A stretch of DNA of 64,000 nt, from contig CAZLBV010000215.1 of assembly GCA_964557845.1 (NCBI GenBank), positions 3,582-67,581 of the forward strand, read 5' to 3'. The notes below the pieces were generated by a model that saw nothing but the letters and a program-made list of their open reading frames with translations, ran no database searches and was not told where the DNA came from. Source of the stretch: an uncultured Eubacteriales bacterium (GTDB lineage: Bacteria; Acidobacteriota; Aminicenantia; Aminicenantales; Aminicenantaceae). The first letter of the stretch is position 1. Each line of letters begins with the position of its first letter. This document shows, piece after piece, positions 28,060 to 38,899 of the stretch. Position numbers and translations under genes: made by a program.

Positions 28060-28629
28060 TTATTCAATGACTGTAAATTCCCACGCACAATAGACATCCG
28101 GAGGATGAGGATCAGGAGGGCAGGTTATACATCTGGTCTGTATTCTGGGATCGATGGTGCGGGCAAAACCGCTGTACTCAACGACCCCTACAGGCTTGCA
28201 GGGAAAATCCGGTAATCCCTTTCTTTTCCTAGCATCCTGGACCCTGCACTTGTTCATCCGGAAAACACAACTGTTTTTCTGGATGTCGATGACCTCCTGG
28301 ACGTTGATATGGGCATAGAGCCTGAATTTTAAAGCTTGAATTAAAGCAGGTATACCACCCCCTGGCTGGATATTAAGACGATTCATGATCCTTTTGGCTT
28401 CAATGACGGTAAAATCCTCCCAGGCTGTTTTGTCCAACTCCATCGCTGTTTCCATCCCGAATTTTTTTTCTGCAGCCTGAAACCATAATCCGTCATGGGC
28501 CAACCAGTTTTTAGCGGCGTCTTTAAGAAGTTCCCTTAATTCCTCCTTGGACATATCTTGGATTTCTTTCATTATTTCTCCTATGACCTGATTTTTATTG
28601 TTTACAGAAGTTCTTTCAGACCGGTTCAT
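28060..28629 (-). CDS. hypothetical cysteine-rich protein, co-transcribed with a radical SAM gene
   Basis: 189-aa ORF whose start overlaps the radical SAM gene end by 14 nt. The C-terminus is Cys/Pro-rich (CRVQDARKRKGLPDFPCKPVG...RCITCPPDPHPPDVYCAWEF). I recognise no family. Confidence 0.35.
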   Translation of the reverse strand: MNRSERTSVNNKNQVIGEIMKEIQDMSKEELRELLKDAAKNWLAHDGLWFQAAEKKFGMETAMELDKTAWEDFTVIEAKRIMNRLNIQPGGGIPALIQALKFRLYAHINVQEVIDIQKNSCVFRMNKCRVQDARKRKGLPDFPCKPVGVVEYSGFARTIDPRIQTRCITCPPDPHPPDVYCAWEFTVIE

Positions 28630-29563
28630 AATATTTTAGATTTTTATATATAACGATTTTTATTTTATTTTCTTGCAGGAGAGAATTCAATTCTTTTAGG
28701 ACCGCGTTTCTATGTTTCCCAAGGGATGAGGAAATATCTTCAAGAGTGACAGGCCTCCTTTTTACCATATCAAGAATTTGGCTGGCTATATTTTCCTGAT
28801 AAGGAGGCTGGTCTCCACCCTGGAATTCTGCGATGATTTCTGCTTTATCACCGAGAAATTTTTGAATTTCTTCTAACCGTGACCTGCTTATCGGTTGAGC
28901 TGTAATTTCAGCAGGTGGGCGAACTACCGTATTGAGATGGATTTTGTCCGGGCGGATTTTTTCTATGACTTTTTTTAATTTTAACAGATGAGTATGTGAG
29001 TCATTGACATTTTTGACAAAAAGGATCTCGAGCCATATTTTACCATTGTATTGCTTTCTGAATTCAATCAAACCTGATAAGATCTCTTTAAGTTCAAGTT
29101 TAGGGTGAGGGCGGTTAATCTGTAAAAATACATCCTGAGAGGCCGCATCCAATGAAGGAACGACCAGGTCTGCCTTCTTTAAGTCCTGCCTGACTTCTTC
29201 TTGAGAAAGGAGAGTACTGTTAGTTAAAACAGCAACCGGAATATCAGTAAATGCTTTGATATTAGTTATCAATTCTCCAATTATTTTATTGAGAGTGGGT
29301 TCTCCTGAACCTGAAAAAGTAATGTAGTCGATATGGTGCCCAGTTTCGATGGCTTTCTTTATGCCAGCTAGAATTTCTTTTATAGAAAAGTATTTTTTTC
29401 TTTCTACAGTCTTTTTAGGGGTCGTCCCCAACTGGCAGTAGATGCAATCCAAACTGCAGGTTTTATATGGCAAGATATCTATTCCTAAAGAATAACCTAA
29501 CCTGCGTGAAGGTACTGGTCCATAAATGAATGTCTTTAGGTTTTTATTTTTAATTTTAGTCAC
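28616..29563 (-). CDS. radical SAM enzyme (CxxxCxxC) of a subfamily with an N-terminal YGPVPSRRLG motif and a C-terminal winged-helix-like tail; function unknown
   Basis: 315 aa with the radical SAM cluster motif CSLDCIYC after GPVPSRRLGYSLGIDI. A paralog with the same architecture lies at 59993-60943. Confidence 0.8.
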   Translation of the reverse strand: MTKIKNKNLKTFIYGPVPSRRLGYSLGIDILPYKTCSLDCIYCQLGTTPKKTVERKKYFSIKEILAGIKKAIETGHHIDYITFSGSGEPTLNKIIGELITNIKAFTDIPVAVLTNSTLLSQEEVRQDLKKADLVVPSLDAASQDVFLQINRPHPKLELKEILSGLIEFRKQYNGKIWLEILFVKNVNDSHTHLLKLKKVIEKIRPDKIHLNTVVRPPAEITAQPISRSRLEEIQKFLGDKAEIIAEFQGGDQPPYQENIASQILDMVKRRPVTLEDISSSLGKHRNAVLKELNSLLQENKIKIVIYKNLKYYEPV

Positions 29564-29645: not shown

Positions 29646-30116
29646 TTAAATTTTTCTGTATTGTTTTTTCCAGGGTGATTTCTTTTGATAGAGATAATCA
29701 GCCAAAGCCCGGCGTAGTGTTTCCGATGCCAATTGAGCGCAGTGGATGTTTTCTTCGGGAAGCCCTCCCAGCTCTTTCAAAATAACATCGGCACTGATGG
29801 AGGCAAGAGCCTGGTTGAAGGTTTTGTCTCTTGAGAGTTCCGAAACCACACTTCCACAAGCCAAAGTAGCTCCACAACCATCGGTAAGAAAAGTGCATTT
29901 GCTTATTCTGTCATCCTGAAATTTTAAAAAAATTTCCATAGTATCTCCACAGGATCCAGTTACCTTTGCATATCCATCAGGCTGCTCCAGTTTTCCCAGA
30001 TTAAGAGGATGGAGCCACAGATTGATAACCTTATCGGTATAGATCTGTCTGGCTTGCTCCATGATCTGCTCCTGAAGCTGCTGCGTTATTTTTTCTAATT
30101 CCTCGTCTTTATCCAT
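29646..30116 (-). CDS. IscU/NifU-N-like Fe-S cluster scaffold protein
   Basis: 156 aa with the three scaffold cysteines in conserved contexts: GSCGDTMEIFL, TDGCGATLACGS and HCAQLASE. Confidence 0.8.
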   Translation of the reverse strand: MDKDEELEKITQQLQEQIMEQARQIYTDKVINLWLHPLNLGKLEQPDGYAKVTGSCGDTMEIFLKFQDDRISKCTFLTDGCGATLACGSVVSELSRDKTFNQALASISADVILKELGGLPEENIHCAQLASETLRRALADYLYQKKSPWKKQYRKI

Positions 30117-30408: not shown

Positions 30409-31281
30409 TTACTTTTTTTGTCTCTTTTGCAACTCAGCGGTTATAAAATCCCTCAATTCTTGTATAGAGAATCCATAACTCTTTCTTAATCTGCCCAGGT
30501 GGTCAAACTCTGAAACATTTGCAGGCAATCCCATTCCCTGGATAATGGTTTTTGTGTTTATTCCGGTTTTTAATTCTATGTCTCTTAAACACATCTGCCC
30601 TGTGATCACAATGCCGGATGTATCTTCCTCCAGCCTTCCATGAACGAGCTTATCTTCATGTTCCTGGGTTTCTTCGTGAAGGTGGACAGCTGGATAACTC
30701 TCAGATTTCACCTCAATTTCTTTTTCTGGTTTCTGCTGGTTATTGGCTGCTCCAGATAAAGACTTTTCCGAGCTCTTACCAGGTACGGATGCTTTTTTTT
30801 GCTGTTCGATAATCGAAGGGGCAGGAGAAGGCACCGGGGCAGGGATCGAAGTCGCAGCCGGCACACTTTGCTCAACAATTCTGGACCTCCCAAATTCTCC
30901 GTTTCTTCTTCCATAGTTGGAATACAAAGGAGAGTCCTTAGGCATGAATGCCCAGATAAAAAAAATGGTAAAAAAAGCAGCTGCTACGGTAAGGCCGATA
31001 ATTAGAGGGGCCTTATTTTTAAATAGACGGCGTGACTGCGCTTTAATCCAGCTCCATTCAAGGATCAGATGAATAATGACTAATGCTGTGAATGCTAGGG
31101 ACAAAATTAGATGAATGTCGCCCCATTGATGCCGGTGCAGACCTAAAAAATATTTTCCCTGGTCATTGACTGTCGGTCCTTCTGCGAGAAAGAAAGCCAT
31201 CAGTATTCCTATAACTGCTATTCCAAAAAGAAATATGAAAAGAAAAGTATCTACCAGATATTTCCATATGTTTTTATTCAT
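30409..31281 (-). CDS. membrane protein with an N-terminal DUF4405-like His-rich transmembrane domain and a C-terminal soluble domain
   Basis: 290 aa with three TM helices and conserved histidines (HRHQWGDIHLILSLAFTALVIIHLILEW), typical of DUF4405 putative haem/cytochrome-b-like modules. A Pro/Ser-rich linker follows, then a C-terminal domain of unknown family. Confidence 0.45.
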   Translation of the reverse strand: MNKNIWKYLVDTFLFIFLFGIAVIGILMAFFLAEGPTVNDQGKYFLGLHRHQWGDIHLILSLAFTALVIIHLILEWSWIKAQSRRLFKNKAPLIIGLTVAAAFFTIFFIWAFMPKDSPLYSNYGRRNGEFGRSRIVEQSVPAATSIPAPVPSPAPSIIEQQKKASVPGKSSEKSLSGAANNQQKPEKEIEVKSESYPAVHLHEETQEHEDKLVHGRLEEDTSGIVITGQMCLRDIELKTGINTKTIIQGMGLPANVSEFDHLGRLRKSYGFSIQELRDFITAELQKRQKK

Positions 31282-31313: not shown

Positions 31314-32186
31314 TTAATTATCCACATTTTTTAGATTAAGCCAAATTTCTTTTATCTCATTGGCAAGGTCAGAATTAGGAAGTTCTGGAATAGGGATGCC
31401 TTGAGTGACAGCTTTAATCGCATCTTCTGAATAGGAGATTTTTCCTAAAATTTTGATGTTGTTTTTTTGACACCAAGTAATGATTCCGTGTGTGTTTTGC
31501 TTATTTATGTCGTATTTATTGATAATACAGGCAGTTTTGATTTTAAAATATTTGGATGTCTCGATAACTCTTTCCATATCATGGACCGCAGAAAGAGTGG
31601 GCTCAGTGACCACAACCGCTAAATCAACTCCGGAAAGAGAAGCGATGACTGGGCAGCCTATTCCGGGAGGCCCGTCGATAAGGACCCAATCCAAATTGCC
31701 CGACTCTGCGATCTCTCTGGCTTTTTCTCTAACCAGTGAAACAAGTTTTCCGGAATTTTCTTCCCCGGGATACAGCCGGGCATGAACAAAGGGGCCGTAT
31801 TTTGTTTGAGAAATATACCATTCTCCGCAAACCGCAGGTTTCATTTCGATCGCCTGTACAGGACAAGATAAGGCACAAACTCTGCATCCTTCGCATGAAA
31901 AAGGATCTATAGAAATTTTTCCTTCATCGGAAGAGTGAATGGCATCGAACCGGCATAAACTCACACAAGCACCGCAGTATGTGCATTTTTCTTCATTGTA
32001 AACGGCTTTTTCTCCGCTTGTAAATGTGTGTGTTTCTTTGATCTCAGGATGGATCATTAAATGCAGATTGGCTGCATCAACATCACAGTCAGCGAGTACT
32101 TTCTTTTCTGCAAGGGAGGCAAAGGCAGCGGTCACAATTGTTTTCCCAGTTCCGCCTTTTCCGCTGATAACAACTATTTGCTTCAC
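31314..32186 (-). CDS. MinD/ParA-superfamily P-loop ATPase with inserted 2x[4Fe-4S] ferredoxin domain (CooC-like, COG1149-type)
   Basis: 290 aa with a deviant Walker A (GKGGTGKT) and two CxxCxxCxxxCP motifs (CTYCGACVSLC, CEGCRVCALSCP) inserted in the ATPase fold. Confidence 0.75.
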   Translation of the reverse strand: MKQIVVISGKGGTGKTIVTAAFASLAEKKVLADCDVDAANLHLMIHPEIKETHTFTSGEKAVYNEEKCTYCGACVSLCRFDAIHSSDEGKISIDPFSCEGCRVCALSCPVQAIEMKPAVCGEWYISQTKYGPFVHARLYPGEENSGKLVSLVREKAREIAESGNLDWVLIDGPPGIGCPVIASLSGVDLAVVVTEPTLSAVHDMERVIETSKYFKIKTACIINKYDINKQNTHGIITWCQKNNIKILGKISYSEDAIKAVTQGIPIPELPNSDLANEIKEIWLNLKNVDN

Positions 32187-32217: not shown

Positions 32218-33099
32218 TCATCTCTTGGTTAGATTGTCGGTCTGAATTTTAATCTTGTATTTTAAGCTGTCATAGAGTTCTGAGAATTTGGTCTTAAAAC
32301 TTGGATCTATATCAATCAAGGCTTCTCCTTTAGAGTAAGCTTCTGCTATTTTTCTGTCCAATGGAATTTCCATGATTAAGGGAATGTTTTCCTTCTGACA
32401 GTATTCATGAATGATCTCATCACCTGTTCTTGCCCGGTTTAAGATCACACTAAAGGGAATGCCCATTTGCCTGAGAGTATCAACTGAGAGCTTGAGATCA
32501 TTTAAACCAAAAGGAGTCGGTTCTGTGACAAGAAGGGTGTGATCGCTGCCCTTAACTGTTTCGACCATAGGACATGATGTGCCGGGTGGAACATCCAGGA
32601 TCACATCTTGTTCGTGGTCGATCATTTTTTTCATCTGCCGGATCAACGGAGGAGACATTGCCTGGCCCACATCCAATTTTCCTGATAGAAAAAATATGTT
32701 TCCGGCATGACCTGATTTGATCACTCCGATTCTTTTGCCAATTTCTTTTATTGCGTTTTCAGGACAGAAAAGTTTACATGCCCCGCAGCCATGGCAGAGT
32801 TCAGGAAAGGTAAGAACGCTTTCTTTGAGTACGGCCAAGGCATTATAAGCACAGACTTCAGCACAGCGCCTGCAGTAGGTGCATTTATTATCATCAATTT
32901 CAGGAATAGGCAGGTAAGAGATTTTTTCTTTCTCAAATTCTGCTTTTATGAAAAAATGGGCATTTGGTCCTTCTACATCACAATCTAAAAATTGCAGCTT
33001 CTGATCTGCTGAAATGGAAAGAGCTATATTTACAGCAACCGTTGTTTTACCCGTTCCTCCTTTACCGCTGGCAATGGAAAGGATCATTAAATACTCCAA
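32218..33099 (-). CDS. MinD/ParA-superfamily P-loop ATPase with inserted 2x[4Fe-4S] ferredoxin domain (paralog)
   Basis: 293 aa with GKGGTGKTT, CTYCRRCAEVC and CHGCGACKLFCP. It is the tandem paralog of the downstream gene. Confidence 0.75.
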   Translation of the reverse strand: MEYLMILSIASGKGGTGKTTVAVNIALSISADQKLQFLDCDVEGPNAHFFIKAEFEKEKISYLPIPEIDDNKCTYCRRCAEVCAYNALAVLKESVLTFPELCHGCGACKLFCPENAIKEIGKRIGVIKSGHAGNIFFLSGKLDVGQAMSPPLIRQMKKMIDHEQDVILDVPPGTSCPMVETVKGSDHTLLVTEPTPFGLNDLKLSVDTLRQMGIPFSVILNRARTGDEIIHEYCQKENIPLIMEIPLDRKIAEAYSKGEALIDIDPSFKTKFSELYDSLKYKIKIQTDNLTKR

Positions 33100-33800
33100 A
33101 CGCTTCCGGCGCCGAGTTCAAGAAAATCATCCTTATACTCTTCTTTAAAGAGAGTTCGGGCTTCTAGTCCCGAGCAATGGGTCGGCCCCACTTTTTCTAT
33201 TCCCTCTCTTTTAAATAAACGAATGATCTCTTTGATCTCTCGGTCTTCAAATCCACCTAAATGGAATCCCCCAAAGACCATATAAATATTTTTCTGGAAT
33301 TGTTTTTTAGTAAGATCGATTATGTTTGTGATCCGTGGGTGGGCGCATCCAGTTATAAGAATCAAACCTTTATTGGTTTCTAAAATCAGGGATTGCTCTT
33401 TTATCCATCCGTTTATGACGCCGGTTGTAAAGGCTCCAGGTGATAGGTTTTGAGGGCCAGTGATGTAAACCGGGCAGCTTCTGGCATCAGTAACGGCTTT
33501 TTTTATTTTATTTGGAAAAAAATCAGGAATAAATACAGTTACATCGGAGTTTACTGCCAAGAATCCCTCTAAACCCCCTGTGTGATCGAAGTGTTCATGA
33601 GAGAGAAATATTTGATCTACCATTCCAGGCGATTTTCCCAACTTGTTTATATTATCCAGCAAGATTTTATGTTTTGCCCCGGTGTCGAAGAGTATGGTTT
33701 TTTCCATTCCTTGGATCAGGCAGGAAAACCCCCAATCTGTAGCGAATTCTGTTTTATAAGCAATATTGTCATAGAGAATTGAGAAGGTTAATGGAGACAT
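33087..33800 (-). CDS. MBL-fold metallo-hydrolase
   Basis: 237 aa with the HxHxDH motif (LSHEHFDHTGG) and later His/Asp ligands (GCAHP, GGFHLGG). Confidence 0.7.
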   Translation of the reverse strand: MSPLTFSILYDNIAYKTEFATDWGFSCLIQGMEKTILFDTGAKHKILLDNINKLGKSPGMVDQIFLSHEHFDHTGGLEGFLAVNSDVTVFIPDFFPNKIKKAVTDARSCPVYITGPQNLSPGAFTTGVINGWIKEQSLILETNKGLILITGCAHPRITNIIDLTKKQFQKNIYMVFGGFHLGGFEDREIKEIIRLFKREGIEKVGPTHCSGLEARTLFKEEYKDDFLELGAGSVWSI

Positions 33801-33857: not shown

Positions 33858-35060
33858 TCATTCAACAACAGCTAGGGCCTGCTCCAGGTCTGCCTCAAGA
33901 TCTTCATATCCTTCACAACCCACTGAGATGCGGATCAGATCATCTGTTATCCCTGCTTCCAATTTATCTTTCCTCGAGACATTTGCATGAGTCATACTAG
34001 CCGGATGTTGGATAAGGGTTTCAATTCCTCCCAGGGAAACCGCAAGGGTACATAATTTAACTGAGTCGATGAATTTTCTACCGGCATCTAACCCGCCTTT
34101 CAAGCCAAAACTGATAAGAGCACCGAAACCACGCATTTGTTTTTTTGCCAGTTTGTGTTGGGGATGGCTTTCCAAACCAGGATAGTTTACCCAGGCTATT
34201 TTTGGATGATTCTCAAGATAAGTGGCCAGTTTCATGGCATTATCCTGGGATTTCTCTACCCTGAGTGCTAAGGATTTTACTCCCCGTAAGACCAACCATG
34301 CTTGATGCGGGTCCATGTTACCACCCAGAAGGGAGAGAGCTGACCTGAGTTTATTATAAAGTTCTTCGTTTTTGGGAATAATTATTCCGCCTACTATATC
34401 TGAATGGCCGTTGATAAATTTAGTAACACTGTGGTAAACAATATCGGCGCCCAATTCCAGGGGATTTTGAAGATGTGGGCTGGCAAAAGTATTGTCAACC
34501 ACCAGCAGAAGGCCTTTAGAATGGGCTAGCTTTGCACAAGCCTCGATATCTGAAATAATCATGGTTGGATTAGCTGGAGTCTCGATAACAATAAGTTTAG
34601 TATTTGTTTTAATAGCGGATTCAATTTTTTTTGTATCCGAGGTATCCACATAATCGAAACTGATGCCGAATTTGTACGCTAATTTTTCAACCAGGACTCG
34701 AGAAGCCCCATAAACAGAAGCTGTGCTTATCATGTGTGAATTTTGTTCTAATAGACCAAAAAGCAGTGTAGATAGAGCGGACATCCCTGATGAGGTAGCC
34801 ATGGCCCCGTAGCCCTGTTCTAAATAGGCTATATTGTCCTCCAAGGCTCTTATTGTGGGATTACCCATTCTGGTATAGATATATCCTTCTTCTTCTCCGG
34901 CAAACCGGGCTGCGCCCTGCCGGGCATTTTTAAATGCAAAGGTAGACGATTGATAAATGGGTGTCGATACACCCCCAAATACTGGGTCTGGATGTTGAGC
35001 GGCATGGATAACACTGGTATGCCTGCTTTTCATTTTAATATCAGTCACATTTTCCTCCAT
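33858..35060 (-). CDS. Cys/Met-metabolism PLP enzyme (methionine gamma-lyase / cystathionine gamma-synthase / O-acetylhomoserine sulfhydrylase family)
   Basis: 400 aa with PLP-lysine in SVTKFINGHSD and trans-sulfuration-family motifs. The real start is possibly the internal Met at ~35033 (MKSRHTSVIH). Confidence 0.8.
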   Translation of the reverse strand: MEENVTDIKMKSRHTSVIHAAQHPDPVFGGVSTPIYQSSTFAFKNARQGAARFAGEEEGYIYTRMGNPTIRALEDNIAYLEQGYGAMATSSGMSALSTLLFGLLEQNSHMISTASVYGASRVLVEKLAYKFGISFDYVDTSDTKKIESAIKTNTKLIVIETPANPTMIISDIEACAKLAHSKGLLLVVDNTFASPHLQNPLELGADIVYHSVTKFINGHSDIVGGIIIPKNEELYNKLRSALSLLGGNMDPHQAWLVLRGVKSLALRVEKSQDNAMKLATYLENHPKIAWVNYPGLESHPQHKLAKKQMRGFGALISFGLKGGLDAGRKFIDSVKLCTLAVSLGGIETLIQHPASMTHANVSRKDKLEAGITDDLIRISVGCEGYEDLEADLEQALAVVE

Positions 35061-35211: not shown

Positions 35212-35397
35212 CTACCTTCCCCGGATCATCTTGGAACCGCATTTAGGGCAGGTTAATTCAAAACAGGGTTTTCCAGGTTGATGAGAAATTTTGTGTCCGC
35301 ATTTAGGGCACACACATGAACCGCCTGGCCCAAGCCCCTGTCCTCCGCCTAATCCTCTACCTCCTTGCCCATTAGGATCTCCGTTCGAATTGGACAT
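35212..35397 (-). CDS. small Gly-rich zinc-ribbon protein
   Basis: 61 aa with a Gly-rich N-terminus (GQGGRGLGGGQGLGPGG) and two CPKCG knuckles (CVCPKCGH...CPKCGS). Its position inside the conserved island supports it being real. Confidence 0.45.
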   Translation of the reverse strand: MSNSNGDPNGQGGRGLGGGQGLGPGGSCVCPKCGHKISHQPGKPCFELTCPKCGSKMIRGR

Positions 35398-35412: not shown

Positions 35413-35853
35413 TCAGTTATAGGCTTCCATTATCTTTTTGTCTTCATTCATGAGATAATCCAGTTCTTTTCTGAATTTATCATCCCAAAAATTAAGCTTG
35501 TTATGAATTTCAAGATATTTCAGGGGAATAGGATGGGTTCCAATAACAACAGGGACTCCGTACTGAGTTTCAATGTATTCTTTGAATTGAAATAGATAGG
35601 GACAAGGTGGGTACCCGACCACCAAACCAGTGGCCAGATGAATGACTTCTGCGCCATTTTTTATCATTTCTTCTGGAACATATTCAATATTCCCCCCCGG
35701 GCATCCCCCGCAATAGGAATATCCTACGACCTCTATTTCTTCATCTTTTGGATAACGAGCAAAACCTCCGGTCCGTTCCCGGACGGAACGGAAGCATTTC
35801 CCGCCACCGCATAACTGATAGCGTCCACATATTATGATGCCGATTTTTTTCAT
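35413..35853 (-). CDS. CGGC-domain protein
   Basis: 146 aa with MKKIGIIICGRY...CGGGKC and YCGGCPGG. I recall these as the CGGC-domain family signature. Confidence 0.55.
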   Translation of the reverse strand: MKKIGIIICGRYQLCGGGKCFRSVRERTGGFARYPKDEEIEVVGYSYCGGCPGGNIEYVPEEMIKNGAEVIHLATGLVVGYPPCPYLFQFKEYIETQYGVPVVIGTHPIPLKYLEIHNKLNFWDDKFRKELDYLMNEDKKIMEAYN

Positions 35854-35874: not shown

Positions 35875-36681
35875 TTAATTTTTTCCGGTAGATTCCAAGA
35901 TCCTTTCAGCGACTTCGAGAAAAGCCTTGGCTGTTTCTGACTCGGCAGTATCTTCTAAGAACGATTTGCCAATGTCGCCGAGGATTACGATCTGAGGATC
36001 AATGGGAATTCTTCCCAGAAAAGGAACACCCAATTCGCCAGCGGCTGTTTCGCCTCCGCCCTGTTTAAAAAGGTCGATCTTTTTACCACAATGGGGGCAG
36101 GTCAATCCGCTCATGTTTTCTATGATTCCATACACCTGTAAATTCAATTTGCGGGCAAAGGCGACTGCCTTTCTTGAATCCATAAGAGAAACCTCTTGTG
36201 GGGTTGTAACCACAACTGCGCCGCTAGCAGGAATCAACTGGGCTACTGAAAGAGGTTCATCTCCTGTGCCTGGAGGCGAGTCGATAATCAGCCAATCAAG
36301 GTTTCCCCAATCAACGTCTCCAAGAAACTGCTGGATGGCTTTCATCTTCATAGGCCCCCGCCAAATTACGGGGAGATCAGGGCTTTCGAGTAAAAAAGCC
36401 ATAGATACGAGCTTTAAATTCTTATCCACCTGAACAGGTTTAATTCCGTTAGGTGAAACATCAAGCCGTTTCGTCTCAACGCCCAGCATTTTTGCCAGGT
36501 TGGGCCCATGAATATCTACGTCTAATAATCCAACTTCTAATCCTTTTTTTTCAAAGGCATAAGCGAGGTTGGCAGCTACTGTGCTTTTCCCAACTCCTCC
36601 TTTTCCACTGAAAACAAGAAGTCGGTTTTTGATTTTTTCTAAAGCTTTCTTGATTTTTTCTGATTCATTTTCGTTTGGCAT
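35875..36681 (-). CDS. Mrp/NBP35/ApbC-family Fe-S cluster carrier ATPase
   Basis: 268 aa with Walker [18 protein letters not shown] and the conserved CPHCG cluster-binding motif. Its ATG overlaps the stop of the upstream NifX-like gene (ATGA-type overlap at 36679-36683). Confidence 0.85.
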
Positions 36682-37400
36682 TATTCTTCTCTTTCCATGA
36701 AGTTTTCAAGGACATCTTTTACCTTTCCTGAGACTCCTGTGATCATTTTAATTCCGGATTCCTGCAACACTTTATCTGCATTGGGTCCAAAGTCTCCGGT
36801 CATAACAAGTGATGGATTTTTTTCGGCAATAAATTGGGCTGCTTTAATTCCAGCGCCATGAGCAGTATCTATATATGGATTGGAGATCGCTTCAACCTGA
36901 TCTGAACCAGGTGTCAAAAATAAGAAATATTGGGCTCTTCCGAATTTCGGATCAACCTCGGAATCAATGGTGTTTCCCAGTGCAGTAATACATATCTTTG
37001 TACGGGTATCATGAGACAGGGATTGATGTTCGTGATGTTTAGGATGTCCTTGATTCATATGGCGTTCGCTCCCGTGATCGCAAAGGTCTTCTCCAGGTTT
37101 CAGTTGGCCTAGCCTATATTTTTCGATAACTTCGTCGATCGGGCCTTGGACACCTATGATCGTTTGAATATTCTTTTTTCTAAACAATTCCTGGGCACGG
37201 GGGCCCATCCCACCGGTAATGATGAGATTGACCCCTCGCGCACTTAAAAATTCTGGTAGAAACCCTGGTTGGTGACCCGGATTATCAATTTCTTCTTTTT
37301 GGGAGATCCGGTTATCTTCTATGTCAACTATTGTATACTTCGAACACCGCCCAAAATGGGCGGCAACAAAACCATTCTCTGTAGAGACTGCAATTTTCAT
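36681..37400 (-). CDS. tandem fusion of two dinitrogenase FeMo-cofactor-binding (NifX/NafY/NifB-C-like) domains joined by a His-rich linker
   Basis: 239 aa. Domain 1 starts [29 protein letters not shown]. The His-rich linker reads [18 protein letters not shown]. Domain 2 starts [27 protein letters not shown]. Confidence 0.7.
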
Positions 37401-37460: not shown

Positions 37461-37805
37461 TTATTTTGCTTTTTCTTCTTTTTCAATTTTACTGATTCTT
37501 TCTGAGAGATCTTTTAGCTCCTTTTCCATTAGGTCTTTTTCCTGTTTCAAATATCCGAGTTCTTCTTCTTGTGACATCGAAGGGGCACCTGCTCCATAGG
37601 GGTACCCTGGATAACCATAACCATAGCCATAAGGATTATATCCTCCCATTGGGTATCCCCAACCGTAACCTCTTCCGTATCCGCGTCCAAATCCGTATGA
37701 CATATAACCCGGGTAAGTATATCCTGCGCAAAATCCTCTTGCACGGCCTGTCATAGATCCGAAGCCCCAAGGTCCTGTTCTATCGCCTCCTGGCATTTTC
37801 TTCAC
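37461..37805 (-). CDS. small Gly/Tyr-rich low-complexity protein with a C-terminal coiled coil (DUF5320-like)
   Basis: 114 aa. MPGGDRTGPWGFGSMTGRARGFCAGY is followed by GYG/YGY low-complexity repeats and then EEELGYLKQEKDLMEKELKDLSERISKIEKE. This matches my recollection of the DUF5320 architecture, which is commonly adjacent to NifX-like/Mrp genes. Confidence 0.5.
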   Translation of the reverse strand: MKKMPGGDRTGPWGFGSMTGRARGFCAGYTYPGYMSYGFGRGYGRGYGWGYPMGGYNPYGYGYGYPGYPYGAGAPSMSQEEELGYLKQEKDLMEKELKDLSERISKIEKEEKAK

Positions 37806-37810
37806 CTCCT

Positions 37811-38257
37811 TTATTGGCAGTTTTTACATAGACCGATAAATTCAATATTATGGTCCAATATCTTAAAAGAAAATTTAGCTTCCAATTTTTTTTCTGCTTT
37901 ATTGATAAATTCTAATTCTTCTTCAACGAATTCTCTGTAATCAATTATTTTGCCGCAGTTGGAACAGATCAAATGGTGATGATGATCAGATTTTTTTCCT
38001 GATCTGAATTCATATCTATTCTGTCCATCACCGATAGAAATTGTTTGTATCATTCCTGTTCGAGACAGTAAATCTAGTGTCCGGTATACTGTGGTAAGCC
38101 CCAGGCCAGGATAGATTTTTATCAATTCGCTATAGATGTCCTTGGCACTTAAATGCTTATTTGTCCGGATGAGCAGATCTACGATCGCCTGACGGGGTGC
38201 TGTCCACCTGCATACCTGTCCTCTGAACCGATGATGCCATTTGTTTGCTTTATACAA
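37811..38257 (-). CDS. fur: Fur-family metalloregulator (Fur/Zur/PerR)
   Basis: 148 aa with an N-terminal winged helix, HHHHLIC-x-CG and a C-terminal CxxC (LCKNCQ). Confidence 0.8.
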   Translation of the reverse strand: MYKANKWHHRFRGQVCRWTAPRQAIVDLLIRTNKHLSAKDIYSELIKIYPGLGLTTVYRTLDLLSRTGMIQTISIGDGQNRYEFRSGKKSDHHHHLICSNCGKIIDYREFVEEELEFINKAEKKLEAKFSFKILDHNIEFIGLCKNCQ

Positions 38258-38272
38258 TTTAATCTTTCCTTT

Positions 38273-38294
38273 TGATAATGAAAACCATTATCAT
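38273..38294. promoter_or_regulatory. Fur box-like operator (TGATAATGAAAACCATTATCAT) in the fur/queF divergent promoter region
   Basis: About 16 of 19 positions match the classical GATAATGATAATCATTATC palindrome. It lies 16-37 nt upstream of the fur start codon (38257, minus strand). Confidence 0.55.
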
Positions 38295-38488
38295 TAACAA
38301 ATTACCTTAGGTACACTTATTTGTCAAGTTATAATTTTACCCAAACCCCTATTTACTTGTTTTATTTCCAATCTGCAAATTTTCATTTAAAATAATATCC
38401 TGGATCAGGATCATATAGTTGAAGGTAAAATCCACCTGTTGTAAAAGATTGTCTTCATCCTTGGGTTATTATATACTTTTCAAAAGGA

Positions 38489-38899
38489 TTGAAAATGAAA
38501 GAATACGGAGAAAAAGAGGCAAAAGCAGGTCTGAGAGATGAACTGCCCTCCTTAGCGACTTTTCCCAACCAGTTTTCTGATTATGAAATAAAAATTGAAA
38601 TTCCTGAATTCACATCTATCTGCCCGAAAACAGGGCTTCCTGATTTTGGAAAACTGACTATCCAATACATACCGATCGATCTGTGTCTTGAGTTAAAATC
38701 GTTAAAAATGTATATCCTTGCTTATAGAAATCTTGGTATATTTTACGAAAATGCAGTCAACCGGATACTGGAGGATATTGTTTCGGCCTGTAAGCCCGCC
38801 CAAGCAATTGTTACAGGAGAATTCACACCCAGGGGGGGGATAAGATCCATAATTGTGGTTCATTATCCCCGAAAAAAAACATTAAAAGAGAATAATTGA
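38489..38899 (+). CDS. queF: NADPH-dependent 7-cyano-7-deazaguanine (preQ0) reductase, type I
   Basis: 136 aa with EFTSICPKTGLPDFGKL (catalytic Cys) and the QueF motif region KSLKMYILAYRN. Confidence 0.85.
   Translation: MKMKEYGEKEAKAGLRDELPSLATFPNQFSDYEIKIEIPEFTSICPKTGLPDFGKLTIQYIPIDLCLELKSLKMYILAYRNLGIFYENAVNRILEDIVSACKPAQAIVTGEFTPRGGIRSIIVVHYPRKKTLKENN

Follow-up and report, generated by a model that had tools for sequence, protein, structure and literature searches.

A DUF5320 gene and a metal-knuckle microprotein gene in an Fe–S operon related to the orange-protein cluster: candidate IssA-like tails supplied in trans

The stretch analyzed here (the window) comprises 64,000 nucleotides of contig CAZLBV010000215.1 from an uncultured Eubacteriales bacterium, assigned by GTDB to the Aminicenantales within the Acidobacteriota, and its segment from 29.6 to 38.3 kb is a run of minus-strand genes whose positions are collected in Table 1. 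The operon opens with a gene for a Fur-family regulator, followed by a small gene for a DUF5320-family protein rich in Gly and Tyr and then by genes for a two-domain NifX-like protein (NifX2), an Mrp/NBP35-type Fe–S carrier ATPase (Mrp), and a CGGC-domain protein. A second small gene, for a 61-aa Gly-rich microprotein with metal knuckles (here called ZnR), comes next, ahead of genes for a Cys/Met-metabolism pyridoxal phosphate (PLP) enzyme, a metallo-beta-lactamase-fold protein (MBL), and a pair of MinD/ParA-like ATPases (MinD–Fer4). The two small proteins, which had been singled out in an earlier sequence-only reading of the window, are the subject of this analysis, which leads to the proposal that they may lend NifX-like and orange-protein (ORP)-like carriers a tail resembling that of the Pyrococcus furiosus protein IssA.

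The DUF5320 gene had been listed as an open reading frame (ORF) of 114 aa at 37461..37805; this frame does exist on the minus strand, but its start and length required correction. Around the start, the minus strand reads CAA TAA AGGAGGTGAAGAAA ATG, in which a Shine–Dalgarno sequence (GGAGGTG) comes immediately after the stop codon of the Fur-family gene and is itself followed by 6 nt and an ATG at 37796 that lies 14 nt past that stop codon. Because the GTG formerly taken as the start (37805) falls within the Shine–Dalgarno sequence, the gene in fact starts with the ATG at 37796, and the product is a protein of 111 aa with the N terminus MPGGDRTGP. An identical 111-aa product (P0001) is found in the gene calls of three public assemblies, and the window sequence is identical to part of a 159-kb JGI metagenome contig (3300001335 ML8_10000347). 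The parts that had been described for this ORF, namely the GFCAGY motif, the GY-rich stretch, and the Lys/Glu-rich C terminus, are present as described. The ZnR gene likewise has its own Shine–Dalgarno sequence (GAGGAG, 6 nt before the ATG) and starts 15 nt past the stop codon of the CGGC-domain gene.

Both sequences are short and of low complexity, and ORFs in other frames overlap them, so the possibility was considered that they are spurious reading frames without a product. The sequence-only reading had itself named an absence of homologues with a GFCAGY-type motif, or of a ribosome-binding site, as grounds for discarding the genes. Instead, thousands of homologues with invariant residues were found in bacteria and archaea, strong Shine–Dalgarno sequences stand at the correct spacing before both genes, gene order is conserved, and fusion proteins occur. 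The spurious-frame explanation was rejected on conservation, and its probability is negligible; both small ORFs are genuine genes rather than chance products.

A profile search placed the larger of the two proteins firmly in the Pfam family to which it had been likened. DUF5320 (PF17253) matches with 87.2 bits against a cutoff of 27 (E = 1.8e-24), and the alignment of residues 4–106 of the 114-aa ORF to profile positions 1–98 of 99 amounts to a full-length match; NCBIfam contains no model for either the DUF5320 protein or ZnR. DUF5320 is an already known, functionally uncharacterized family. A word-indexed search returned 411 homologues, and when 1.84 billion cluster representatives (50% identity) were searched exhaustively with HMMER, 7,084 matched at E ≤ 1e-3, of which 3,244 reached E ≤ 1e-10. 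Because these 7,084 representatives extend over many phyla, the family is common and not exotic, and the earlier view that a composition of this kind is very unusual in bacteria does not stand in the face of at least 7,084 clusters from many anaerobic phyla and from archaea. A scan of one genome per species gave at least 470 relatives, of which the best 80, from more than 20 phyla, supplied the related loci used for the synteny counts below. The hosts of these 80 loci are essentially all anaerobes and include Asgard and DPANN archaea, Atribacterota, Firmicutes, Planctomycetota, Chloroflexota, Spirochaetota, Desulfobacterota, Acidobacteriota, Bacteroidota, Zixibacteria, and many candidate phyla.

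Like the Pfam family as a whole, the window protein has three parts: an N-terminal motif that contains an invariant Cys, a middle of low complexity, and a helix at the C terminus in which a Glu and an Arg are invariant. In an alignment of 24 diverse DUF5320 homologues (A1), the invariant N-terminal columns are M1, P2, G4, D5, G8, P9, G13, G17, R18, G21, C23, G25, P29, and G30 (consensus MPGGDRTGPxGxGPMTGRxxGFCAGYxxPGY), and E79 and R100 are invariant in the helix. All 16 invariant columns are kept in the window protein, and the family motif can be written as MPxGDxTGPxGxGPxTGRxxG[FY]CxG..PG[YF]. The single Cys of the GFCAGY motif, to which the earlier reading had drawn attention, is present in all 24 sequences of the alignment, and a Cys count of exactly one is shared by 165 of the 191 family members analyzed. 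The middle segment varies in length and sequence while its character remains constant (consensus GRGFGRGxGRG). An AlphaFold model built with alignment A1 has a block-mean predicted local distance difference test score (pLDDT) of at most 50 over residues 1–70 and contains one helix, at residues 76–110, with block means of 68–93 that reach ~88–93 at residues 81–100. The C-terminal region that had been read as a coiled coil is modeled as a confident amphipathic helix, in which an a/d heptad pattern (L80-L83-(K87)-M90-L94-L97-I101-I104) can be picked out by eye from the sequence, and a short coiled coil at this end is plausible on the model. Profile searches of the PDB with A1 and with the corresponding ZnR alignment (A2) gave chance matches only, to the RG tails of ribosomal proteins, the coiled coils of IF1 and HA2, and generic Zn fingers.

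Middle segments were compared across 191 family members, with the window segment taken as the ~48 residues that follow the Cys motif and precede the final 38 residues. The typical member is Arg/Gly-rich (GRGFGRG), and the family medians are 29% Gly, 12% Arg, 10% Tyr, 6% Phe, 3% Trp, and 10% Pro with a net charge of +6, whereas the window segment has 33% Gly, 29% Tyr (the 99th percentile), and 4% Arg (the lowest of the 191) with a net charge of +2. The window protein is accordingly a compositional extreme of its family, Tyr-rich and Arg-poor, and its GY repeat represents a segment that is normally of the RG/aromatic kind but is here depleted in Arg. Its closest relatives (P0002–P0004; 72–91% identity over the aligned region) keep a block of the type GRGFGRGMGRGRG, ~14 residues long in P0004, that is missing from the window protein. 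The DNA of the GY segment was also considered as a tandem array, and this origin was ruled out: the repeat amounts to a 6-nt unit present only 3.7 times, so the low complexity is a feature of the protein and not the product of a recent tandem array. In composition (Gly and Tyr, with Arg in the relatives) and in predicted disorder the segment resembles the RGG and [G/S]Y[G/S] domains of FUS-type eukaryotic proteins, to which it is evolutionarily unrelated; it differs from them in being short (~45–55 aa), in lying between strictly conserved modules, and in being encoded in a metal-cluster operon.

This composition would suit a condensate scaffold, in which the Gly/Tyr segment (RGG elsewhere in the family) would drive phase separation and the coiled coil would give multivalency, so that the Fe–S/ORP machinery is concentrated at a site within the cell without its clusters being touched. 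The sticker-and-spacer make-up, for which the Tyr and Gly of the window variant are the best suited, the low pLDDT followed by a predicted oligomerizing helix, and a middle segment conserved in composition and not in sequence are all consistent with such a role, as are the polar position of MrpORP in Desulfovibrio vulgaris (PMC6345978) and the 20–300 nm particles formed by IssA (PMC5524996). The argument is purely compositional, however, and it leaves unexplained the strictly conserved N-terminal peptide, the invariant Cys, and the fusions to NifX-like and ferredoxin domains described below. It also largely overlaps the proposal of an IssA-like tail rather than excluding it, and as a separate explanation we consider it rather unlikely.

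The second microprotein, ZnR, falls under every Pfam Zn-ribbon threshold, its sub-threshold matches being to Zn ribbons only (best Zn_Ribbon_1, 22.3 bits against a cutoff of 25). A word-indexed search returned 12 relatives, none with a Pfam domain, and the names given to ZnR relatives by JGI (RpoP, with the 61-aa protein called RpoP-like, and RnfB) look wrong and are evidently guesses. By phmmer, relatives of ZnR occur in 41 of the 80 DUF5320 loci, in 39 of them less than 5 kb from DUF5320. Their core can be written as C-x-C-x2-C-x5-H-x5-C-x4-C-x2-C, and the consensus of A2 is GPGGxCxCPxCGxxxxHxxGxPCxxxxCPxCGxxMxR, with C28, C30, C33, H39, C50, and C53 invariant and C45 nearly so. The two CPxCG knuckles that had been noticed in this protein (C30/C33 and C50/C53) are thus among its most conserved features. 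Compared with other Zn-ribbon microproteins, ZnR adds a Gly/Arg-rich N-terminal arm and, with six Cys and one His in all, three potential ligands (C28, H39, and C45) beyond the four of a Zn ribbon; the conservation of all seven suggests a second metal or cluster site. AlphaFold predicts a knuckle domain at residues 25–60 (pLDDT 82–86, strands at 27–29 and 36–38) behind a disordered Gly-rich arm. A Foldseek comparison of this model with the PDB found nothing significant (best E = 0.45), the nearest structures being the adenylate-kinase LID, RpoP, and rubredoxin knuckles, which share with the model two CPxCG knuckles on beta-hairpins; a search of the PDB with the ZnR profile (best match E = 0.009) found no related solved structure.

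RGG/RG boxes and Zn ribbons are classic RNA/DNA-binding modules, including for G-quadruplexes, and the two microproteins might on this account be nucleic-acid-binding regulators that control the operon post-transcriptionally. A DUF5320 protein of Methanosarcina has been flagged by a motif scan for an RG-rich motif like those that bind G-quadruplexes (PMC7565180), and both the RpoP-like label of the 61-aa protein and the presence of RNA polymerase subunit P among its nearest folds would fit. Those structural matches are not significant, however, and the window DUF5320 protein contains almost no RG. Across the 80 loci the fusions join these modules to NifX-like or ferredoxin domains and never to nucleic-acid enzymes, and a regulator dedicated to the operon already exists, namely Fur here and OrpR in the Desulfovibrionales. 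A role of this kind is very unlikely.

Sequence comparison indicates that the two small proteins are connected through their N termini. The DUF5320-type motif MPRGDGTGPxGQGPGTGRG opens 19 of 40 ZnR relatives, and those starting with MPRGDGTGP match positions 1–39/47 of the Pfam DUF5320 profile with 21–26 bits, just under its threshold. An hhalign comparison of A1 with A2 gave a probability of 92.4% (E = 5.3e-7) over the first 20 columns only. The window ZnR itself begins with a decayed motif, MSNSNGD, against MPNGD in a 77%-identical relative (P0122). Because the motif is common to both families, the DUF5320 and ZnR genes are modular relatives; they belong to one modular set, with a shared N-terminal peptide, a flexible Gly-rich arm, and alternative C-terminal modules. 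At least two microproteins with the N-terminal motif are encoded in 25 of the 78 loci covered by a regular-expression survey.

Further classes of microprotein carry the same motif (Table 1). One class, without a helix or coiled coil, combines the Cys with an RG/aromatic segment that terminates in ...RGRGRGRFxYWW, and another, of ~65 aa, has a pure RG tail. Some DUF5320 proteins among the database representatives (P0245, P0246, P0254, P0284, and P0291) have a second N-terminal motif with Cys upstream in the same reading frame (MPGFDGTGPxxGPxTGKGMGYCVV...), and these either carry the motif in tandem or reflect the merging of two small genes during gene calling. The motif was also considered as the mark of a ribosomally synthesized and post-translationally modified peptide precursor or as a secretion signal, and this was dropped, the neighbors being cluster carriers and ATPases and not peptide-modifying enzymes or exporters.

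The genes that surround DUF5320 recur with it. The next gene 3′ of DUF5320 on the same strand encodes a NifX-like protein in 43 of 75 loci and a MinD–Fer4 protein in 9 more, and in the 50 loci whose sequence continues for 5 kb or more downstream of DUF5320 the same strand encodes within that distance a NifX-like protein in 37, MinD–Fer4 in 35, and Mrp in 19. When genes less than 5 kb away in either direction are counted, MinD–Fer4 is found in 53 of the 80 loci, Mrp in 36, MBL in 16, and a Fur-family gene in 22, nearly always directly upstream. The gene order of the window recurs exactly, distal end included, in a metagenome-assembled genome of the Eubacteriales (L003) whose DUF5320 protein is only 37% identical. 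The sequence-only reading had described the position of both small genes within a metal-handling operon as conserved and had pointed to co-occurrence with NifX-like and Mrp genes as a check; the counts for both partners agree with it.

Domain comparison identifies the operon more closely. The first domain of NifX2 is of the MrpORP Di-Nase type, with AHFGRC and CDH motifs, and corresponds to positions 265–361 of the NCBIfam MrpORP model, the N-terminal part of which is matched by Mrp. The second domain has its best PDB match in the orange protein of Desulfovibrio gigas (2WFB, E = 5e-14) and is also near MTH1175. A His-rich linker joins the two, while the Mrp P-loop domain is encoded by a separate gene, and judged from these matches NifX2 represents a permutation of domains when compared with Desulfovibrio MrpORP. 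Because Mrp and the first domain of NifX2 match MrpORP and the second domain matches ORP, the window operon is a rearranged ORP cluster. In D. vulgaris this cluster consists of orp7-orp8(ORP)-orp9(MrpORP), divergent from orp5-orp4-orp3, under sigma-54/OrpR control (PMC8359166 and PMC4641369; layout also in PMC6345978). Both clusters have a pair of MinD-like ATPases with 2×[4Fe–4S] (Orp3/Orp4), and in both a small gene, orp7 or DUF5320, stands directly upstream of the ORP-like Nitro_FeMo-Co and Mrp/NBP35 genes. They differ in that the Di-Nase domain is fused to an ORP-like domain in the window and to Mrp in Desulfovibrio, and in that the window adds genes for CGGC, ZnR, the PLP lyase, MBL, and an IscU-like protein. 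In Desulfothermus okinawensis, a member of the Desulfovibrionales (L084), the order is a PAS–sigma-54 activator like OrpR, an unknown gene, DUF5320, a NifX-like gene, two MinD–Fer4 genes, and another NifX-like gene; DUF5320 here takes the place of orp7, in an arrangement that parallels the D. vulgaris layout.

Regulation is a further point of difference, with sigma-54, OrpR, and IHF in D. vulgaris and a Fur-family gene with a Fur box in the window, where no sigma-54 activator is found among the called genes flanking the operon. The classical Fur-box consensus is GATAATGATAATCATTATC, and a palindrome between a TTGACA hexamer (38322–38327) and the start of the Fur gene, TGATAATGAAAACCATTATCA, agrees with it at 17 of 19 positions. 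A search of the 64-kb window for TGATAAT-N(1-9)-ATTATCA returned this one match, where 0.03 would be expected by chance. Similar boxes, of the 7-1-7 or the 19-bp type, stand directly upstream of the Fur–DUF5320 or DUF5320 operon in six unrelated loci (Table 1). Because the boxes recur in this position, the cluster appears to be iron-regulated through Fur outside the Desulfovibrionales, and they would tie it to iron and Fe–S homeostasis rather than specifically to Mo/Cu chemistry, with iron-responsive expression as the probable outcome. The QueF-family gene beyond the operon is transcribed divergently from it, so that the intergenic region with the Fur box is common to both promoters. A general scan for promoters and terminators gave no more sites than were found in shuffled sequence, with no terminator between the operon genes.

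Natural fusions link the modules of the small proteins to their neighbors. In three loci (L046, L080, and L028) a single polypeptide contains Nitro_FeMo-Co, a GMGRGMGRG low-complexity segment, and a DUF5320-type coiled coil; the fusions of L046 and L080, which were scanned with Pfam, pass both gathering thresholds (DUF5320 at 37–41 bits). A fusion in L027 joins Nitro_FeMo-Co through an RG linker to the ZnR knuckle, and those of L045, L026, and L049 join a 2×[4Fe–4S] ferredoxin to ZnR in the same manner. These fusions argue that the flexible arm and the C-terminal module function while physically joined to a NifX-like or ferredoxin domain. The NifX fusions are without the N-terminal motif and its Cys and stand beside a standalone DUF5320 gene, which argues that the N-terminal peptide has a role of its own. 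The homologous coiled coils of the fused and the standalone proteins could pair.

To our knowledge, IssA is the only characterized NifX-like domain with a disordered tail that is rich in Gly, aromatic, and cationic residues. Its tail of 70 aa is unstructured, with 10% cationic residues, 20% aromatic residues, 21% Gly, a pI of 10.7, and the only Cys of the protein, and has been proposed to wrap anionic thioferrate in the Fe–S particles that IssA forms (PMC5524996). The median DUF5320 middle segment, with 12% Arg, 19% aromatic residues, 29% Gly, a net charge of +6, and one Cys, has nearly the same make-up, and in both cases an unstructured segment with a single Cys is tied to a NifX-like (IPR003731) domain. 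The tail of IssA is covalently attached to that domain, whereas in the window the two are encoded by separate genes, the fused form being that of L046, L080, and L028. By analogy, DUF5320 and ZnR may be accessory subunits that supply an IssA-like tail in trans to ORP- and NifX-like carriers, an interpretation to which we give an even chance of being right. The N-terminal peptide MPxGDxTGPxGxGPxTGR, with the invariant Cys of G[FY]C in DUF5320, would serve as an anchor or ligand; the flexible Gly-rich arm would wrap or retain the anionic metal-sulfide species that the NifX-like domains bind, glue carriers into higher-order assemblies, or both; and the C-terminal module (the coiled coil of DUF5320 or the Cys6His metal knuckle of ZnR) would provide oligomerization or docking. 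Metal-sulfide binding, a partner for the N-terminal motif, and an oligomeric state are what we infer here.

Several observations weigh against this interpretation. The likeness of the DUF5320 segment to the IssA tail is one of composition, and no member of the family is less cationic than the window protein (Arg 4%, net +2); electrostatic wrapping of thioferrate fits it worse than the family because its segment is barely cationic. It further differs from the IssA tail in having its own conserved N-terminal peptide and a putative coiled coil. The NifX fusions of L046, L080, and L028 share their locus with a standalone DUF5320, so the standalone protein is not simply a detached tail. Under classical Fur repression, expression would rise when iron is scarce, and this is unexpected for a storage system. 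An equation of Orp7 (DVU2107) with a DUF5320 protein is inferred from gene position in the relative Desulfothermus, and the purified ORP complex of D. vulgaris consists of Orp3, 4, 5, 8, and 9, with Orp7 not reported as a subunit (PMC6345978). A literature search for DVU2107 gave a regulon table only, and a homology search seeded with a DUF5320 protein of the Desulfohalobiaceae returned no named D. vulgaris protein among its matches. DUF5320 itself was named only incidentally in the literature searched, and no study of the family was found.

The conserved Cys would be given greater weight by a carrier role, in which a coiled-coil dimer pairs Cys23 to ligate a bridging Fe–S cluster or to cap a Mo/Cu–S cluster that is exchanged with the NifX-like and Mrp proteins, the middle segment being a linker. 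Besides the invariance of the Cys and its solitary occurrence in most members, this role could draw on the bridging clusters that Mrp/NBP35 proteins bind at dimer interfaces (PMC6345978), on the location of the only Cys of IssA in its tail (PMC5524996), and on the three ligands of ZnR beyond the Zn-ribbon four. Two thiolates alone rarely hold a cluster, however, the NifX fusions with a disordered region and coiled coil dispense with both the N-terminal motif and the Cys, and the conserved composition of the supposed linker is left unexplained; we hold this role to be unlikely, slightly more so than that of a condensate scaffold.

The proposal of a tail supplied in trans can be extended, tentatively and at a probability that we put well short of even, to DUF5320, ZnR, and at least two further classes as one superfamily of disordered microproteins. 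With MPxGDxTGP...G[FY]C as their anchor, these would act as detachable "IssA tails" that template, cap, or condense anionic iron-sulfide (thioferrate-like) or thiometallate species on NifX/ORP-like carriers. If true, they would constitute an ancient prokaryotic, mineral-coupled analogue of low-complexity-domain condensates, present in Asgard and DPANN archaea and more than 20 bacterial phyla.

The ORP system and the NifX-like "MTH1175-type" proteins of anaerobes are widespread and functionally obscure. From IssA it is known that a domain of this type can store iron and sulfur in the form of an inorganic polymer, with a disordered tail to hold it. Should the tail be supplied in trans, there would be a testable role for a family of 7,000 or more clusters, with Orp7 as a target in the genetically tractable Desulfovibrio, and the Fe–S handling of strict anaerobes would include a disordered, possibly condensate- or mineral-organizing component. 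For the window itself the result is more modest: two genuine genes of a known, uncharacterized kind in an apparently iron-regulated Fe–S island. As far as could be found, the N-terminal module that links DUF5320 to the knuckle and other microproteins, the NifX and ferredoxin fusions, the match in composition to the IssA tail, and the recurrent Fur box are undescribed. The sequence-only reading had mentioned neither the shared module, the identity of the ORP cluster, the NifX-like fusions, nor the Fur box.

Table 1. Features of the operon and its surroundings in the window and, where an L number precedes the position, in related loci
Feature	Position	Strand	Basis
DUF5320 (PF17253) gene, 111 aa + stop	37461..37796	minus	start ATG 37796; Pfam match; same product called in public assemblies
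DUF5320 residues 1–31, conserved N-terminal module MPGGDRTGPWGFGSMTGRARGFCAGYTYPGY with invariant Cys23	37704..37796	minus	A1 invariant columns
DUF5320 residues 32–75, Gly/Tyr-rich segment, predicted disordered	37572..37703	minus	AlphaFold 28–68 pLDDT below 50; composition
DUF5320 residues 76–111 + stop, Lys/Glu-rich amphipathic helix, putative short coiled coil	37461..37571	minus	AlphaFold 76–110; A1
Shine–Dalgarno GGAGGTG of DUF5320 gene	37803..37809	minus	read directly from sequence
ZnR, 61-aa Gly-rich metal-knuckle microprotein, N-motif decayed to MSNSNGD	35212..35397	minus	no Pfam family; A2; AlphaFold
Fur-box palindrome TGATAATGAAAACCATTATCA	38273..38293	no strand	only TGATAAT-N(1-9)-ATTATCA match in window
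Fur-family regulator, first operon gene	37811..38257	minus	Pfam FUR E=4e-31
NifX2, two-domain NifX-like (Nitro_FeMo-Co) protein	36681..37400	minus	Pfam E=3.5e-43, two stretches
Mrp/NBP35-type Fe–S carrier ATPase	35875..36681	minus	Pfam PF10609 E=7.6e-99; NCBIfam MrpORP 373 bits, model 1–253
CGGC-domain protein	35413..35853	minus	Pfam PF08821 E=1.7e-26
Cys/Met-metabolism PLP enzyme (gamma-lyase/synthase class)	33858..35060	minus	Pfam PF01053 E=3e-150
Metallo-beta-lactamase-fold protein (MBL)	33087..33800	minus	Pfam PF00753
MinD/ParA-like ATPase, two [4Fe–4S] ferredoxin motifs, Orp3/Orp4-like	32218–33099	minus	Pfam CbiA/ParA + Fer4
MinD/ParA-like ATPase, two [4Fe–4S] ferredoxin motifs, Orp3/Orp4-like	31314–32186	minus	Pfam CbiA/ParA + Fer4
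DUF4405 membrane protein, distal end	30409–31281	minus	Pfam, NCBIfam
NifU_N/IscU-like scaffold, distal end	29646–30116	minus	Pfam, NCBIfam
Radical SAM protein and DUF6125 protein, beyond cluster	28616–29563, 28060–28629	minus	
QueF-family gene, divergent from Fur–DUF5320 operon	38489–38899	plus	Pfam PF14489, public gene calls of identical contig
Fur-type boxes in related loci	L006 9489–9501, L010 9890–9902, L019 6943–6955, L049 3423–3441, L052 8087–8105 (18/19), L060 196–214		
Further N-motif classes	L018 9676–9957, L031 9650–9958, L036 8331–8792, L046 7039–7317, L056 9234–9701		
Further N-motif classes (continued)	L076 7547–8032, L080 9489–9959; L029 3–203, L048 7942–8172, L054 9754–9966		

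The PLP enzyme and the distal IscU/NifU_N scaffold, followed by the radical SAM and DUF6125 genes, give the locus the look of a self-contained island for sulfur mobilization and Fe–S assembly, in which the gamma-lyase-type PLP enzyme is a possible sulfur source.

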